DNA from: Spirochaetia bacterium
GTDB taxonomy: Bacteria; Spirochaetota; Spirochaetia; WTKD01; G963693115
Length of the DNA: 64,000 nt
Assembly: GCA_965226055.1 (NCBI GenBank)
Contig: CBDDCA010000006.1
Location: forward strand, 258,251-322,250
Direction of reading: 5' to 3'
In this document: positions 56,191 through 60,906 of the stretch, one piece after another
Layout: every line of letters starts with the position of its first letter
Numbering within the stretch: position 1 is the stretch's first letter
Translations under genes and position numbers: made by a program
Notes under the pieces: generated by a model
Told to the model about the DNA's origin: nothing
Seen by the model: the letters and a program-made list of their open reading frames with translations, nothing else
Database searches by the model: none

Positions 56191-59100
56191 GTGCTAGCAA
56201 TGACTACCCTCGTACTTGTAGGATGTGCAGAGAGTAGCAACAATTCCTCATCAGGCGGAGGGGGAAAACAGGTAACCCCGACACTCGCATCAGTGTCCAA
56301 TGTGCAGATACAAGCAGCAAGCAACGATGGGACGCTCTCGTTACGCTGGCAAGCTCCCAGCGAAGCCACGCATGTAGTAGTAAAAGCTACATCAACTGCG
56401 CCAGCACAATCTATACAGGTGCGTGTTCCTGCAATAGAATATCGTGCATTGTTTCAACAAAACAGACCCTACACCCTCAGAGGCTTGCATGCCACTACCG
56501 ATTATACAGTAGAGATAGAAGCACAAAAATCAGACTCAGAAGTATCACCAAAAACAACACGCTCTGTGACAACACTGATCGATGAAACTGCACCACAGGA
56601 CACTTTTACACGGGTAGCAGTAGAGAAAGCACAAAACGATAGTATAAAGCTAACATGGGACAAAGCACTGCTATCGTCAGGCAAGACAGACATAGCCGAA
56701 GCCACAATACAGGTGATAGAAAGAACTACTAATGTAAGGGCAGAAGTATCAGTACAAGATGTAACACAAGGAGAGGTGAGCATTGCTGTCCCCACTATAG
56801 ACGGCATAAGCTATGATATAGTAGTAGTATACAAAGATAGCAACGGTAACGAAAGCACAGCAAAGCAAGCACTCAGAGGCATAGTGCCATCAGCACTCTC
56901 ACAAACAGTAACGCCACTTTCCGCATCAGACCTTACAGTAACAGCAAACGATAAAAGCAATAGCCCAGCCGATGAAAGCCTGCTTATTATGTGGGATGAT
57001 AAAGATGACAGCTTTGACTTTTCAAACAAAAGCCTCCAAGTACGCGTTATAGCAACCGCAACAAATACAGTAGTAGCAGAGGAGACAATAGACAAAGATA
57101 CAAGTGCAACAAATGTCAGCGGAGCAAGTGCAGACAACCAAGAGTACGCCACTGTGTATGTAGCAAAAGATGGCATAGCACTCACAAAACTCTATGGCAC
57201 GCTTACCTACAAAGTAGAAGTGTATGTTTCTCAAAACGGAAAGTACTCCACTGCAGTGTCAAAAGAACAAGCAACAACAGACAAAAGCACAGAGCCTGTA
57301 AGCAATGTAAGTGCCGTAGGAGGAGCAACAAGCATAGTAGTAGGCTGGCAAGCCCCCGATGTACGAGATTATGCAGGAGTGACTATAACAGTAACAGAAA
57401 AGGACAGCACAACAGCAGCAAAGACAGTGACAATAACAGAGAGAACAGTACGCAACACACAGATAACAGACCTCAAAGCAACCACCGAGTATACAGTGGC
57501 AGTCGTATCAATGGACAGTGCAGGCAACAAAGGAACAGAAGCAACAGCCACAGTCAGCACATCAGCAGATAGCACCGCCCCCGATGCAGTAACAAGCATA
57601 CAAGCAAGCTATCCTTTTGTATCAGCAGCAAAGATAGGCACACAGATAACATGGACAGCACCCGATGCAGCAAAAGCAAAGAACAAAGACATAAAAGAAT
57701 ACAGCGTAAGCATAGCAGAAAAAGGCACAAGCACCACAGTACTGAGCGAGAAGAAAATACCCTATCCCACAAAGTCACTCTCTGTAGAAGAACTTGTGCA
57801 AGGCAAAACATATACCATAACAATACTCACGCTTGATTACTCAGAAAACAAAAGTAGCCAAGCCACAAAAGACATAACAACCCCCAACTCACTCACAGCT
57901 CCCTCAGAAGATCTCTTTCAAAGCAAGCCTACCCTTGACAAAACAGGAGCTATACAGATAAAAGCAACTTTTAAGAATGCTCCAAGCATAGGACGATACT
58001 ACACCTTGCGTATGAAAGAGGGAGCTACCTTAATAGCAGAAAAAAGCATAACAAACACAGCAATCACCATTAGCTTTGGGATAGCAGATGGCTTAGAAGT
58101 ACCTAAGAGCCAAGCAAATGCCAAGAATTATCGCTTTGATTTTCTGCAAATAGCAAATAACAGAGTAAGTCCAGTAACCGCACTGAGTGATGCAGTAGCA
58201 GTATACGATAGCACCTCGACAGCACCGCCCGCTCCCAAAGATGCAAAGCTCTCCGTAGAGTCAGTAACCCAAACAACTGCAAAAGCAGTCTATACATTTA
58301 GTGCAGGAGACATTACTGATACCAACAAAGCACCCAGCGGAAGCAAACTCACACAGGCACAAATACAATACAAAGTATACATAGCAGCAGGAGACCACAG
58401 CACAAAAACACTAGACGAAATAAAAGCCCTTGCAGGAGTACAAACAAGAGAGCTAGCAGGAAACAGCACTCCATTAAAAGCAACATTTATAGGAACGAAA
58501 GGAGCAGACTATACCGCAGGGGTAGAAGCAATAAACAGCCTCAATCCATCATATAGTACAGGAGCATCAGTAACAATAAAGAAAGCAACACTTACTGCTC
58601 CCCCAAGCACACCAAAAGTAACAACCTACACTAACAGTAATGCAGTGGTATTTGCAGTGCCTACCACAGGAAGTAACAGCGGGAAAAAAGTCATAACAGT
58701 ACAACTCAATGCCTCAGACATAGCAGGAGTGAGCAAGGCAAATGGCAATGCCCTTGAAGCGACAGACCTTGCCTACTATGTGCTATACCTCAAGAAAGAA
58801 GATAGCACAGGAAAGCCTGCCAGCGTATCAGCACTATGGGCAACAGAAAAGAGCAGTACAAGAGTGGCAAAATACACAAAAGCAACAGGAACAACTCAAG
58901 ACACAATATCCATAGCAATAGTAGACAGCACCAGTGGAAGCAATGCAGGAGCCACACCCATAGAAACAGCAAAAGACTACTACATAGGAGTAAGGATAGT
59001 CAACACAACATCCCCCAATTACGATGCAACAAATAGCGACAAGCTCTTTCCTGCAGGCTTTTACACCGATGTAACAGAAATAAAGGAAATCTATACTTCC

Positions 59101-60906
59101 AAAGCAGTAGCACCCAGCCAGTCATTACTCACAGGAAAGCTGGTAGTATCACAGTCAACAAATACTACAGGCACAATAAAGCTGGTACTTACCGAGCTAA
59201 ATACATTTACAGGAGCAAAAGACTACGATGGCACAAACATAACAGCAAATGACAAGCTAGTATACACAGTGTATGGCTTACAGAAAGACACCACTCCTAC
59301 AGTAGCAGAAGTACTTGCAGGCAGAAAAGTAAACCTAGGCAGTGCAAGTAGCGGAGTGTACACAGTACCAGCTCTTGCCAGTTTAGGCTTATCTTCAGAC
59401 ACAGCACCAGTAGTAGCAATAAAAGGAGCGACAAAGTATTACTTTGTGGTAGAGGTAGCAATAAAAACAGACCCTAGCAAGAAAGTAGCATCCTCAACAG
59501 TAGCAAGCGTAACAACCGCATCGCAGGCGACCGCCCCCGCAGAAGTAAGCAGTATACAGACAAGAGTAGCCCAGACAGGCATGAGAGTATCGTGGACAGC
59601 CCCCAGCCTCAGTGCAAGCCACAAAGCAAATACAGGCGATGCCCTAACAGTAGCACAAGTATCGTACAAGGTATACAAAGTAGCTAAGGGAGGCAGTGCA
59701 AAAAGTGTAGCAGCAATAAAACAAGCAGACTCAAGTCCTACAACAGTAGCAGCAGGAACAACAAACACTACCCTGACAGGATTGACAAACGGAACGACCT
59801 ACGAAATAGTAGTGCAAGCAGTAAACAGCACCGATGATACAAAAGCATCCACTGGACTACGCCACGAGTTTGAAGCAAGAGGAATAGCTATAGGAAACAC
59901 TAGCATAGTCTCAGCAGAAGTAGGCAAAACGCCAGCAATAAATATTACAAGAGTACTTACCAGTAACTCTGCCTTTACCTGTGATGCAAACATACTAGAG
60001 GCAGATGCAAAGAAGATAAAACAAGAAACAGGGCTAGCAGTATCGTTTGATCAGAGTAGCAAAACAGTTACTATAACAGGCATAGCAAATAAGTCTAATA
60101 TACGAGATACAGCCATTACTGAGTATAACTATGCTGTAGCACAGTGTACAATAACCGCTTCAAAGAAAAAAGTGCCAGCCACCATCGTGATACAGACAGA
60201 GCTAAGAACAGCACCATCAGGAAAAGCAGAAGCCTATTACAGACCAACAACAAAGGCACAGCTTCAAACTATTATCAGTGAAGAAAAGACAAGGCAAGGT
60301 TCAGGAGGAAACAGTAACCCTAGCCCCAACCTCAACATGATAGACACCAGTGCTATTACTGATATGAGCCAATTATTTCAGAATGATACTACTTTTAATG
60401 GAGATCTAACACAGTGGAATACCAGTAATGTAACGAGAATGAATGGTATGTTTACTGATGCAAGTGTTTTTAATCAAAATATAGGAGATTGGGATACAGG
60501 AGAAGTTATACATATAGGTAGTATGTTTTTTAGAGCAAGTGTTTTTAATCAAAATATAGGAAGCTGGAATATAAGTAAAGTTAAAAATATTGATAGTATG
60601 TTTGCTAGTGCCAGTGCTTTTAATCAAGACATAGGAAATTGGGACACAAGCAATGTTATTAATATGAGTACTACATTTTTGAGTGCAAGTGCCTTTAATC
60701 AAGACATAGGAAACTGGAATGTAAAGAATGTCGATTCTATAACTGGTATGTTTAACGGAGCTTCTACATTTGATCAAGATTTATCATCATGGATATTGTG
60801 TAAAGCAAGTCTCACTTTTTTGGAGTTCGAAAATTCGGCTATGGATGGAAAAACAGCAAAGTACCCGACAGTAAAGCGTCAAAGTGATCCAGCATGTACA
60901 TCGTAA
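56191..60906 (+). CDS. Large chimeric surface lipoprotein (1571 aa) with multiple FN3-like modules and a C-terminal DUF285-repeat domain
   Basis: Lipobox LVGC at residues 9-12 of the ORF-track frame. One FN3-like module near the C-terminus is close to the modules of ORF 1791-4043, and the last ~200 aa are DUF285 repeats like those of ORF 10605-19073. The annotated GTG start lacks a proper signal n-region. The likely start is ATG 56099 or 56126, upstream of the G tract and out of frame as sequenced. Confidence 0.8.
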   Translation: MLAMTTLVLVGCAESSNNSSSGGGGKQVTPTLASVSNVQIQAASNDGTLSLRWQAPSEATHVVVKATSTAPAQSIQVRVPAIEYRALFQQNRPYTLRGLHATTDYTVEIEAQKSDSEVSPKTTRSVTTLIDETAPQDTFTRVAVEKAQNDSIKLTWDKALLSSGKTDIAEATIQVIERTTNVRAEVSVQDVTQGEVSIAVPTIDGISYDIVVVYKDSNGNESTAKQALRGIVPSALSQTVTPLSASDLTVTANDKSNSPADESLLIMWDDKDDSFDFSNKSLQVRVIATATNTVVAEETIDKDTSATNVSGASADNQEYATVYVAKDGIALTKLYGTLTYKVEVYVSQNGKYSTAVSKEQATTDKSTEPVSNVSAVGGATSIVVGWQAPDVRDYAGVTITVTEKDSTTAAKTVTITERTVRNTQITDLKATTEYTVAVVSMDSAGNKGTEATATVSTSADSTAPDAVTSIQASYPFVSAAKIGTQITWTAPDAAKAKNKDIKEYSVSIAEKGTSTTVLSEKKIPYPTKSLSVEELVQGKTYTITILTLDYSENKSSQATKDITTPNSLTAPSEDLFQSKPTLDKTGAIQIKATFKNAPSIGRYYTLRMKEGATLIAEKSITNTAITISFGIADGLEVPKSQANAKNYRFDFLQIANNRVSPVTALSDAVAVYDSTSTAPPAPKDAKLSVESVTQTTAKAVYTFSAGDITDTNKAPSGSKLTQAQIQYKVYIAAGDHSTKTLDEIKALAGVQTRELAGNSTPLKATFIGTKGADYTAGVEAINSLNPSYSTGASVTIKKATLTAPPSTPKVTTYTNSNAVVFAVPTTGSNSGKKVITVQLNASDIAGVSKANGNALEATDLAYYVLYLKKEDSTGKPASVSALWATEKSSTRVAKYTKATGTTQDTISIAIVDSTSGSNAGATPIETAKDYYIGVRIVNTTSPNYDATNSDKLFPAGFYTDVTEIKEIYTSKAVAPSQSLLTGKLVVSQSTNTTGTIKLVLTELNTFTGAKDYDGTNITANDKLVYTVYGLQKDTTPTVAEVLAGRKVNLGSASSGVYTVPALASLGLSSDTAPVVAIKGATKYYFVVEVAIKTDPSKKVASSTVASVTTASQATAPAEVSSIQTRVAQTGMRVSWTAPSLSASHKANTGDALTVAQVSYKVYKVAKGGSAKSVAAIKQADSSPTTVAAGTTNTTLTGLTNGTTYEIVVQAVNSTDDTKASTGLRHEFEARGIAIGNTSIVSAEVGKTPAINITRVLTSNSAFTCDANILEADAKKIKQETGLAVSFDQSSKTVTITGIANKSNIRDTAITEYNYAVAQCTITASKKKVPATIVIQTELRTAPSGKAEAYYRPTTKAQLQTIISEEKTRQGSGGNSNPSPNLNMIDTSAITDMSQLFQNDTTFNGDLTQWNTSNVTRMNGMFTDASVFNQNIGDWDTGEVIHIGSMFFRASVFNQNIGSWNISKVKNIDSMFASASAFNQDIGNWDTSNVINMSTTFLSASAFNQDIGNWNVKNVDSITGMFNGASTFDQDLSSWILCKASLTFLEFENSAMDGKTAKYPTVKRQSDPACTS

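Follow-up and report, generated by a model that had tools for sequence, protein, structure and literature searches.

A probable phase-variable, gene-converting family of surface lipoproteins with FN3 stalks and PARCEL heads in an uncultured Spirochaetia bacterium

The locus and the encoded protein

The 64-kb stretch of Spirochaetia DNA analyzed here (the window) contains on its forward strand a long open reading frame with a lipobox (LVGC, Cys codon 56224-56226), directly downstream of an insertion sequence of the IS30 family. The element is bounded by 20-nt inverted repeats (54790-54809 and 55839-55858), a solo extra copy of the left repeat lies at 54290-54309, and a partial copy, 96.9% identical, adjoins one locus of the same gene family (L017) in a related genome. 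The features of the region, all on the + strand, are as follows.

54790-55858, +: IS30-family insertion sequence (transposase ORF 54892-55857; NCBIfam transpos_IS30, 4.4e-70)
56044-56049, +: family promoter -10 box TATAAT, invariant across 11 aligned paralog upstream regions
56086-56101, +: Shine-Dalgarno AAGGAG (56086-56091) and start ATG (56099-56101), both conserved in the paralog alignment
56099-56179, +: leader frame MNENRELQSMKKIGGGGG..., closed by the stop TAA 56177-56179 when the tract has 15 G
56138-56152, +: G15 homopolymer within the part coding for the signal-peptide n-region, a candidate switch for phase variation by slipped-strand mispairing
56191-60906, +: long ORF as given, 1571 codons, in a frame other than that of ATG 56099
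56275-59520, +: stalk of nine FN3-like domains, D1-D9, residues 29-1110 (Pfam fn3, 8e-27)
59521-59886, +: D10, an FN3 subtype with a helical insertion, residues 1111-1232, with homology to each of the six units in ORF 1791-4043
59887-60315, +: D11, an Ig-like beta-sandwich (1233-1340), and a capping helix (1341-1375), from sequence match and structure model
60316-60780, +: PARCEL/DUF285 head, six 25-residue repeats with periodic hypervariable positions, predicted to fold as an LRR-like solenoid
60781-60906, +: C-terminal cap and stop codon; two Cys of the cap (LCK...ACTS) are near-invariant, at C438 and C470 of alignment A1

The AlphaFold model of D10 (pLDDT 82-91, helix 74-80) retrieves tandem FN3 structures in Foldseek, and the C-terminal cap is modelled with pLDDT 94-98. 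The tail matches Pfam DUF285 (PF03382, 2.2e-57) and the NCBIfam PARCEL repeat, and its DNA has a 75-nt periodicity. The LRR-like fold of the head is predicted from the model, and we regard the solenoid as a putative binding and antigenic head.

The GTG at 56191 was rejected as the start of the gene, as it leaves only 12 residues ahead of the lipobox Cys and provides no charged n-region. Frame analysis and conservation across paralogs instead identify ATG 56099-56101 as the true start; a full -35/-10 pair was not called at 56044-56049 by the consensus scan. The G15 run begins 39 nt after this ATG and puts the long ORF out of its frame, a shift that is undone by a change of +1 or -2 nt in the run. 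With 16 or 13 G the leader continues into the long ORF, yielding MNENRELQSMKKIGGGGGVHSRYKQNLTILVVLAMTTLVLVGC, and an N-terminus of this type is present in the in-frame relatives P0008, P0030 and P0053. An earlier note on this DNA had credited this protein and three other lipoproteins of the window with classic lipoboxes; an L-x-x-C motif is indeed found in all four, but the signal peptide of the present gene is complete only at G16 or G13. The same note had overlooked what is probably the dominant variation device, a candidate phase switch by poly-G length within the part that codes for the signal peptide.

G or C runs of at least 12 nt occur three times in the window, against none expected from 100 shuffles of it. 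The window also has poly-G tracts beside a GT11 fucosyltransferase gene. As assembled, the window copy of the lipoprotein gene is apparently in the OFF phase. Such ON/OFF calls at single loci are uncertain, because homopolymers of 12-18 nt can be miscalled by ±1 in what appear to be long-read metagenome assemblies.

Poly-G tracts across the paralog family

The combination of FN3 stalk and PARCEL head is found in about 67 full-length paralogs, 52-91% identical, in two Spirochaetia genomes. Approximately 32 lie on contigs assigned to the window's own genome (an assignment that is inferred for every contig except the one of 957,439 bp) and 35 in the related 2.36 Mb genome, and the family takes up about 7% of a 2.36 Mb chromosome. 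Paralogs differ by the presence or absence of D8 and of an extra FN3 domain and by the number of PARCEL repeats; one is a tandem fusion of 2616 aa, one lacks start codon and signal peptide (L010) and one is truncated (L025). A deeper head swap is seen in P0068, where a Kelch propeller takes the place of PARCEL.

In OZ244590.1 a poly-G tract stands at the equivalent position in 20 of the 24 family loci, with lengths from G12 to G18 (G14 in seven, G15 in nine, and G12, G16, G17 and G18 in one each). Three of these tracts are in frame; the others are shifted into one or the other of the two wrong frames and are followed by intact ORFs of about 1550 codons. An in-frame G14 occurs in a third assembly, in a relative with a Kelch head that is 44% identical (L081). 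Not every member has the switch, since of the 32 paralogs predicted for the genome of the window, 19 encode a complete signal peptide that contains no Gly run.

At 12-18 nt, the tracts reach lengths that would allow slippage during transcription, as known for homopolymers in bacteria and endosymbionts. The run might thus be no heritable DNA switch at all but an attenuator or rescue device, slippage of RNA polymerase or ribosome giving a steady fraction of full-length product, and this would fit both the tight clustering of lengths at 14-15 and the finding that the majority of copies, although out of frame, remain intact and under purifying selection. We consider this unlikely, given that the tracts of the paralogs fall into all three frames, the in-frame length included, as slippage at the DNA level predicts, and that similar poly-G tracts in the 5' part of genes are established switches at the DNA level elsewhere (in Campylobacter, PMC8355987; as suggested for PARCEL lipoproteins of M. 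agalactiae, PMC2996958). The two processes are, moreover, not mutually exclusive.

Long G runs are also error-prone in long-read assemblies. Contig names such as ctg26443_14x and ctg148314_6.95x point to modest coverage in an apparent long-read metagenome, and the modal tract lengths are only 1-2 nt away from an in-frame length, so that all tracts might in truth be in frame and code for a short poly-Gly in the signal peptide, the frameshifts being consensus errors. This is improbable to a greater degree, for the spread from G12 to G18 at loci with near-identical flanks exceeds ±1 and the same picture is obtained in two independent assemblies. In addition, a pure G run, instead of mixed GGN Gly codons, has been kept across proteins only 44% identical, which indicates selection for the repeat itself.

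Relation to other lipoprotein loci of the window

Three further loci of the window share modules with this gene.

1791-4043, +: lipoprotein of six tandem D10-type FN3 units (tandem-repeat analysis and alignment)
8650-9642, -: 330-aa PARCEL/DUF285 lipoprotein (profile match and alignment)
10605-19073, -: 2822-aa lipoprotein with alternating DUF285 and He_PIG modules (profile match and alignment)

The units of ORF 1791-4043, about 120 aa long (TRF period 360 nt, 6.0 copies, 84% matches) and 66-90% identical to one another, were described by the earlier note as homologous to the D10 region, and the alignments bear this out far beyond chance: residues 1113-1230 share 49-56% of their amino acids with each of the six (E 8e-31 to 2e-37), against only 35% (E 1.6e-6) for the best other FN3 domain of the same protein. 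The DUF285 nature of the tail, and its likeness to ORFs 8650-9642 and 10605-19073 (35-43% aa, E 1e-37 to 1e-48), are likewise upheld, but the extent of about 200 aa that had been given is too short; from about residue 1235 onward, the Ig-like domain, helix and PARCEL repeats resemble the He_PIG-helix-DUF285 supermodule of ORF 10605-19073 (residues 1207-1534 versus 1741-2044 of the 2822-aa protein, 35%, E 8e-45).

The inference drawn from these homologies, that the three loci form one pool of exchangeable modules from which the gene was recently assembled by recombination, is very unlikely and largely refuted. Apart from the specific homology of D10 and of the whole tail, it can draw on a composition break at the junction of stalk and head, where GC3 falls from 0.33-0.37 (genome background, 0.22-0.26) to 0.25, a value similar to that of other DUF285 genes. 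Against it, nucleotide identity is only 57-60% for the FN3 unit and 66-73% for the PARCEL repeats, no high-identity DNA block shared between the loci was found when they were compared at the nucleotide level, and the units of ORF 1791-4043 are no nearer to D10 (about 54%) than is the corresponding D10 in a relative that belongs to another organism (56%). The divergence between the loci is therefore old, and so is the fusion of FN3 and PARCEL itself, because the architecture is common to the approximately 67 paralogs of two genomes and, in part, to the 44%-identical relative.

Mosaicism, selection and likeness to known systems

The recombinational diversification proposed by the earlier note, not supported between the three loci, finds support inside the paralog family, where strong mosaicism is seen together with module gain and loss. 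The stalk (D1-D9) is 70-100% conserved between paralogs and mosaic: every 60-aa window of it has a match of 93-100% in some paralog, while the best-matching paralog keeps switching from window to window, and paralog pairs 88-92% identical in nucleotides share exact blocks of up to 494 nt. The four-gamete test is failed by 60% of informative site pairs, and in a PHI-type test neighbouring sites are more compatible than after shuffling (incompatibility 0.497 versus 0.602 ± 0.004, p ≤ 0.001). These patterns point to gene conversion among the paralogs.

The GC3 of the D1-D9 stalk is 0.33-0.35. With dS of 0.17-0.20, the stalk has a dN/dS of 0.24-0.31, which shows purifying selection on genes that are not decaying. 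The head, for which the best paralog match is 63-77% only, has a dS of 0.49 and a region-wide dN/dS of 0.55, below 1; its entropy is periodic along the sequence, and pN/pS reaches 1.10 at variable positions, as defined from an independent gene, versus 0.25 at scaffold positions. The former value is compatible with relaxed constraint or diversifying selection, and diversification of a surface protein is plausible. The least credible reading takes the out-of-frame copies for pseudogenes, or for silent donor cassettes that serve only a small set of expressed loci in the manner of TprK or Vls, since the out-of-frame majority of tract-bearing copies, the defects of L010 and L025 and the pervasive gene conversion that might suggest it are outweighed by a conserved -10 box, Shine-Dalgarno and ATG of its own on each copy, an uninterrupted ORF of about 4.7 kb past each tract, the low stalk dN/dS and the lack of a single expression site.

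Shuffling of PARCEL modules and poly-G-bearing PARCEL lipoproteins have already been described in mycoplasmas (Roske et al. 2010, PMC2996958), among them LppQ/LppC of M. mycoides, MAG1330 and MAG3260 of M. agalactiae and the contingency lipoproteins of M. capricolum. These share with the present family a lipoprotein head of 25-residue PARCEL repeats, a conserved hydrophobic scaffold with hypervariable hydrophilic positions, and multiple copies for which intragenomic shuffling and association with mobile elements have been proposed. Here, however, the host is a diderm spirochaete, PARCEL ends a stalk of about 1300 aa that consists of one Ig-like and ten FN3 domains, and gene conversion homogenizes at least 30 near-full-length paralogs. 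A dyad symmetry has been reported for PARCEL DNA and was not evident here.

The poly-G/C contingency loci of Campylobacter, Helicobacter, Neisseria and Haemophilus (PMC8355987, PMC2823697) are similar in that the length of a G tract in the 5' coding region sets the frame, with several such tracts per genome concentrated in genes for surface structures. There they belong to unrelated genes, whereas here most lie in one paralog family of giant lipoproteins. Campylobacter tracts are typically of 8-13 nt, and those reported here, at 12-18, are longer. In the Tpr family of Treponema pallidum (PMC7864442), also spirochaete surface paralogs, poly-G length modulates expression and gene conversion makes variants. 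Unlike here, the tracts lie upstream of tpr and act on promoters and transcription, and the proteins are of beta-barrel or MOSP type instead of FN3/LRR-like lipoproteins; the present family has no dedicated donor-cassette array. The predicted head was also compared with LRR surface proteins (TpLRR of T. pallidum, 6mlx; BspA-type LRR of Bacteroides, 4fs7; Listeria internalins; LIC LRR proteins of Leptospira). An LRR-like head at the end of a long stalk would recall internalin-type adhesins, but sequence identity is only 4-17%, and the 25-residue FNxDIxxW PARCEL motif differs from their LxxLxLxxN signature.

Taken together, ORF 56191-60906 is probably a member of a contingency family of phase-variable, gene-converting surface lipoproteins, adhesins or antigens, in an uncultured Spirochaetia bacterium. 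Its product would start with a lipoprotein signal peptide, continue as a stalk built from ten FN3-type domains and a single Ig-like one, and end at the C-terminus in a helix- and Cys-capped PARCEL solenoid. Slipped-strand mispairing in the G15 run would set expression, with an exportable, lipidated protein made only when the length of the tract leaves the long ORF in frame with ATG 56099, and, as paralogs would flip independently, the cell surface would become stochastic and combinatorial. Frequent segmental gene conversion may at once homogenize and shuffle the stalk, occasional gain, loss or swap of modules may add diversity, and the head may diverge at solvent-exposed repeat positions. Systems of this kind are already known, and what is new is the host and the architecture. 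The proteins would presumably be switched on and off, be exposed at the surface, and serve ligand binding or the evasion of immunity or phages.

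Gene start and signal peptide of the long lipoprotein gene

The open reading frame at 56191-60906 (+) translates into 1571 residues. A Pfam scan matches the long protein to fn3 (PF00041, E 8.1e-27) in four stretches, and the tail to DUF285 (PF03382, E 2.2e-57), with the PARCEL repeat (TIGR02167, 3.3e-10) found there in NCBIfam; the PARCEL-coding DNA has a period of 75 nt (25 residues) in 3.5-4 copies. Initiated at its GTG, the frame opens with VLAMTTLVLVGC, which contains a lipobox and no n-region. An ATG at 56099, 92 bases 5' of the GTG and preceded at seven bases by AAGGAG, is followed by AAT GAA AAT AGA GAG CTA CAA AGT ATG AAA AAA ATC and then by a run of 15 G (56138-56152) that starts 39 nt past this ATG. 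With 15 G, translation from ATG 56099 would end at TAA 56177. A tract of 16 or 13 G would instead give MNENRELQSMKKIGGGGGVHSRYKQNLTILVVLAMTTLVLVGC..., apparently a full lipoprotein signal peptide fused to the long ORF; the lipobox, LVGC, is present, and the charged n-region connects to it only with G16 or G13. The full signal peptide is seen in the predicted N-termini of in-frame paralogs. The main finding at this locus is the tract found at the misplaced gene start, and the correct annotation would be a start at ATG 56099 with a frameshift, rather than a GTG-initiated ORF without a signal peptide. The putative phase switch adds a mechanism that lay beyond the observations of the earlier note.

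The upstream regions of the paralogs have in common an invariant TATAAT, a conserved TGTGTAATGATAAACACAC element, a Shine-Dalgarno sequence (SD) and the ATG. In the window the TGTGTAATGATAAACACAC consensus element (56050-56075), which has partial dyad symmetry, is flanked by the -10 box on one side and the SD on the other; it may be an operator or a 5'-UTR structure. The conserved TATAAT promoter was missed by a generic scan for promoters, whose sites were no more numerous than in shuffles; the family promoter is proposed solely from conservation among paralogs.

The window's neighbouring genes are of ordinary chromosomal kinds (ABC sugar transporter, SecB, 2-oxoacid dehydrogenase, FabV). GC skew is negative on the strand that carries the lipoprotein gene, and most of its neighbours are on the other strand. 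IS30 was considered as a vehicle associated with the family and set aside as incidental, being nearby in only two of the 25 loci inspected. Two further features were observed on this side of the window:

54290-54309: solo IS30 left inverted repeat, 500 bp 5' of an intact element, which suggests an earlier insertion or a deletion remnant
49836-51969 (-): segment of 23% G+C with a D12-class N6-adenine DNA methyltransferase next to a 428-aa ORF without a family match, probably a horizontally acquired restriction-modification pair

The poly-G tract across the paralog family

In a protein search, 67 full-length relatives were recovered (identity 52-100%, length about 1400-1820 aa, with a tandem fusion of 2616 aa in addition), all of which carry both fn3 and DUF285. 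More than half (35) are on a single contig of 2,360,799 bp, OZ244590.1 ('MAG: Spirochaetia bacterium', chromosome), 13 on the window's own contig of 957,439 bp (among them P0002, the window protein, 100% identical), 14 on a contig of 726,939 bp and five on four smaller contigs; we infer that the 726,939-bp contig and the four smaller ones belong to the same genome as the window. By our arithmetic, 35 genes of ~4.65 kb make up roughly 7% of the OZ244590.1 chromosome. Literature searches gave no description of this spirochaete lipoprotein family, and DNA pattern and protein scans of JGI metagenome contigs, run for clues to habitat or host, gave no relatives. The OZ244590.1 loci L002-L025 are dispersed round the chromosome, and their orientation tracks position (forward genes fall at 0.09-0.71 Mb and 2.32 Mb, reverse ones at 1.19-2.24 Mb), which suggests a replication-strand bias of the poly-G-bearing family genes.

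Runs of G or C of at least 12 nt appeared in none of 100 shuffles of the 34% G+C window, in which three such tracts are observed. Paralog DNA and tracts were read on the related chromosome OZ244590.1, and paralogs of the window genome were judged by their predicted N-termini. A G run occupies the same place, between ...AAAAAAATC and TACACTCTCGATATAAGCAAA, in 20 of 24 family loci examined on OZ244590.1, with lengths of G14 (seven loci), G15 (nine) and G12, G16, G17 and G18 (one each). On calls that are consensus homopolymer lengths, from assemblies that look long-read metagenomic (~7-14x), three loci are in frame with the upstream ATG (L007 with G16, L008 with G14 and L017 with G17) and the rest are out of frame, in either frame; an uninterrupted ORF of ~1550 codons 3' of the tract is retained in nearly all of the OZ244590.1 loci. 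The predicted N-termini divide as follows.

Predicted N-termini of family proteins on OZ244590.1 (35 proteins) and on contigs assigned to the window genome (32 proteins)
Start immediately ahead of the lipobox: 21 on OZ244590.1; 10 in the window genome
Reading through GGGG: about 5-6; 1
Full signal peptide without a Gly run: 5; 19
Other: 3-4 (ambiguous, no signal peptide, or truncated); 2

From this split, the putative poly-G switch is widespread in the family yet not universal. An in-frame G14 is also found at the equivalent signal-peptide position of L081, a 44%-identical relative in a third assembly (ERZ25073789), and the retention of a pure G run at such a level of protein identity argues for selection on the repeat itself. 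As in simple-sequence-repeat contingency genes, a long 5' coding homopolymer beyond chance expectation sets the frame of an intact gene by its length. The tract in the signal peptide would switch the family genes individually. Poly-G control of a surface-protein family has been reported in Treponema pallidum, where it acts at promoters (PMC7864442). In cassette variation of the TprK/VlsE type a single expression site is fed by promoterless donors, whereas here each paralog has its own -10 box, SD and ATG; only L010, among the family loci inspected, is a copy without a signal peptide.

A second repeat may act as a switch at the promoter level. A T13-T15 run lies ~40 nt 5' of the -10 TATAAT in 9-10 of the 24 OZ244590.1 loci (L002, L008, L009, L010, L013, L015, L017, L023 and L025), including all four without poly-G, and ~170-190 nt 5' of the poly-G position (2327-2341 in L013). 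L016 has a T26 farther upstream, and the window copy has no T run.

The remaining tracts of the window look like a second, glycan-related contingency locus:

43082-43094: C13 on the + strand, and so poly-G in a minus-strand gene; ~40 nt 5' of a GT11 (alpha-1,2-fucosyltransferase family) gene, 42088-43044
44210-44223: C14 on the + strand, likewise poly-G in a minus-strand gene

Both have the identical context ..GGCATGCTGTGGAAATT-Gn-TAC.. and each is close to the 3' end of one of two HtrL/YibB-like genes in tandem (43031-43990 and 44115-45119), where tract length would alter the C-terminus of the upstream gene and the position of its stop relative to the GT11 start.

Mosaicism, module exchange and kinship with the other window loci

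The best overall identity of any paralog to the window protein is not above about 87-91%, and for every 60-aa stretch of residues 1-1350 some paralog matches at 88-100% (93-100% up to residue 1200), with the top paralog switching repeatedly along the protein. Gene pairs on OZ244590.1 that are 88-92% identical in DNA have exact blocks of up to 494 nt, against ~60 nt expected by our own estimate under independent substitutions. Across 13 aligned genes with 728 informative sites, the four-gamete test is failed by 60% of site pairs, and in our implementation of a PHI-type test adjacent sites show far better compatibility than under permutation (0.497 versus 0.602 +/- 0.004, with none of 1000 permutations as low). 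The order of modules is FN3-like D1-D9, D10 (an FN3 subtype, residues 1111-1232), Ig-like D11, a helix, PARCEL repeats and a cap. Classes of the family differ in the presence of D8, in the presence of an extra FN3 after D10, in PARCEL repeat number and in one tandem fusion, and divergent variants of D2, D7 and D11 occur in several combinations among paralogs. In more distant relatives a Kelch propeller replaces the PARCEL head; in L081 (ERZ25073789 ctg148314), from a third organism, the homologous FN3 stalk bears a Kelch beta-propeller head (756-2798 and 3001-7353), with two or three such genes in tandem. Recombinational diversification and module shuffling inside the paralog family are well supported.

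Divergence is distributed unevenly along the protein:

Stalk, D1-D9: dS 0.17-0.20, dN/dS 0.24-0.31
PARCEL head: dS 0.49, dN/dS 0.55
C-terminal cap: dS 0.58, dN/dS 0.69

In the head, the best paralog matches reach just 63-77%. The FN3 stalk (56275-60210) has a GC3 of 0.33-0.37 and the PARCEL head (60316-60780) one of 0.25, the latter as in housekeeping genes and the genome background (0.22-0.26). Gene conversion, possibly GC-biased, would keep the stalks alike, and a GC bias would fit their raised GC3, although the break in GC3 could also reflect a different origin of stalk and head. On the tentative reading given further below, the heads would escape conversion and diversify, and another binding fold, the Kelch propeller, could replace them. 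In L010 (2345-2470) the SD, ATG and signal peptide are lost and the poly-T promoter region is joined directly to an SSSSSGGGG linker, and the ORF of L025 is truncated to 757 codons. Both copies may be silent or decaying, and they could still serve as conversion donors.

The earlier note had related residues ~1110-1230 to ORF 1791-4043 and the tail to the DUF285 repeats of ORFs 8650-9642 and 10605-19073, and both relationships were borne out. In ORF 1791-4043 an FN3 unit of 120 aa is repeated six times in tandem (TRF period 360 nt, 6.0 copies; 66-90% identity between units), and residues 1113-1230 align with each unit at 49-56% identity (E 8e-31 to 2e-37). With another FN3 from the same protein, D10 reaches no more than 35% (E 1.6e-6); hence the kinship with the six-unit ORF is specific and real. 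The tail aligns with the two DUF285 ORFs at 35-43% identity (E 1e-37 to 1e-48), and the shared unit is larger than had been stated, beginning at about residue 1235: the Ig-like domain, a helix (YYRPTTK..L..I) and the NLNMIDTS..ITDMS..LF repeat entry mirror a He_PIG-helix-DUF285 supermodule repeated in the 2822-aa product of ORF 10605-19073. The further proposal that the three window loci draw on one pool of exchangeable modules is unsupported as an ongoing process, since divergence among them is only old. Their DNA identity (57-60% for the FN3 unit, 66-73% for PARCEL, with no near-identical block) is too low for recent exchange, and the units of ORF 1791-4043 are as distant from D10 as is the D10 of another organism.

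Near these loci the following were also observed:

9931-10536 (-): ORF between the two DUF285 genes, with a 33-nt tandem repeat (10052-10454, 12.2 copies) that encodes an apolipoprotein-like coiled-coil protein of 11-residue repeats, a further repeat-bearing protein of the surface-protein island
12754-13479, 13618-14577, 16087-16602 and 17539-18006 (+): antisense ORFs of 155-319 aa opposite the DUF285 repeats of the 2822-aa gene

Long antisense ORFs in PARCEL-coding DNA have been mentioned by Roske et al. (PMC2996958).

The PARCEL head and the proposed receptor repertoire

The repeat consensus of the head is FNQDIGxWxVSxVTxMxxMF, and entropy is periodic across 65 paralogs (x M x x M F x x A x x), with the conserved hydrophobic scaffold and variable hydrophilic positions that characterize PARCEL. 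At variable positions, set independently from 45 repeats of ORF 10605-19073, pN/pS is 1.10 (pN>pS in 41 of 66 pairs), versus 0.25 at scaffold positions, a sequence pattern in keeping with an exposed face under diversifying selection or under relaxed constraint. Roske et al. described dyad symmetry in PARCEL-coding DNA with a MEME palindrome method; here a plain search for inverted repeats in 60300-60800 gave only one 12-nt arm pair, at 83%.

A model of residues 1100-1571 (pLDDT 75.7) contains an FN3 that carries a helical insert, together with another beta-sandwich, a long helix and a solenoid. D10 has a pLDDT of 82-91 and tandem-FN3 Foldseek matches, and the whole 472-residue model returned only tandem FN3 because the stalk domains dominated the search. 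With a separate tail-only model an LRR-like result was obtained, the structural matches of the head including internalins, Leptospira LRR proteins and lamprey VLRs at 4-17% identity. A PDB sequence search with the tail gave nothing significant. No LRR profile matched in Pfam or NCBIfam and the LxxLxLxxN/C signature was not found; accordingly, the head is termed LRR-like, and it is predicted to be a solenoid of short beta-strand repeats rather than a member of the LRR family. Given an N-terminal lipid anchor, the head would form the distal tip of a stalk of eleven domains.

A tentative and on the whole doubtful reading is that a host-associated, uncultured spirochaete lineage has given over ~7% of its genome to at least 30 genes, each switchable on its own, for FN3-stalked receptors with hypervariable LRR-like heads, switched by the signal-peptide poly-G and, in some copies, also by the promoter poly-T. 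On that reading, the family would be a repertoire for combinatorial recognition and evasion, akin in concept to variable lymphocyte receptors, that would bind changing host, partner or phage-related ligands. Phase-variable surface families are known best from culturable pathogens, whereas this one is found in uncultured Spirochaetia represented only by metagenome assemblies. Its scale is unusual (about 33-35 genes of 4.7 kb each), and its modular layout is clean, with a lipid anchor, a conserved stalk, a hypervariable tip that appears LRR-like and a putative switch legible in the DNA. For DUF285/PARCEL, which is widespread and of unknown function, the models offer a structural hypothesis, that of an LRR-like binding solenoid. 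Raw reads could be used to score the ON and OFF states, so that surface variation could be followed in natural populations without culture.
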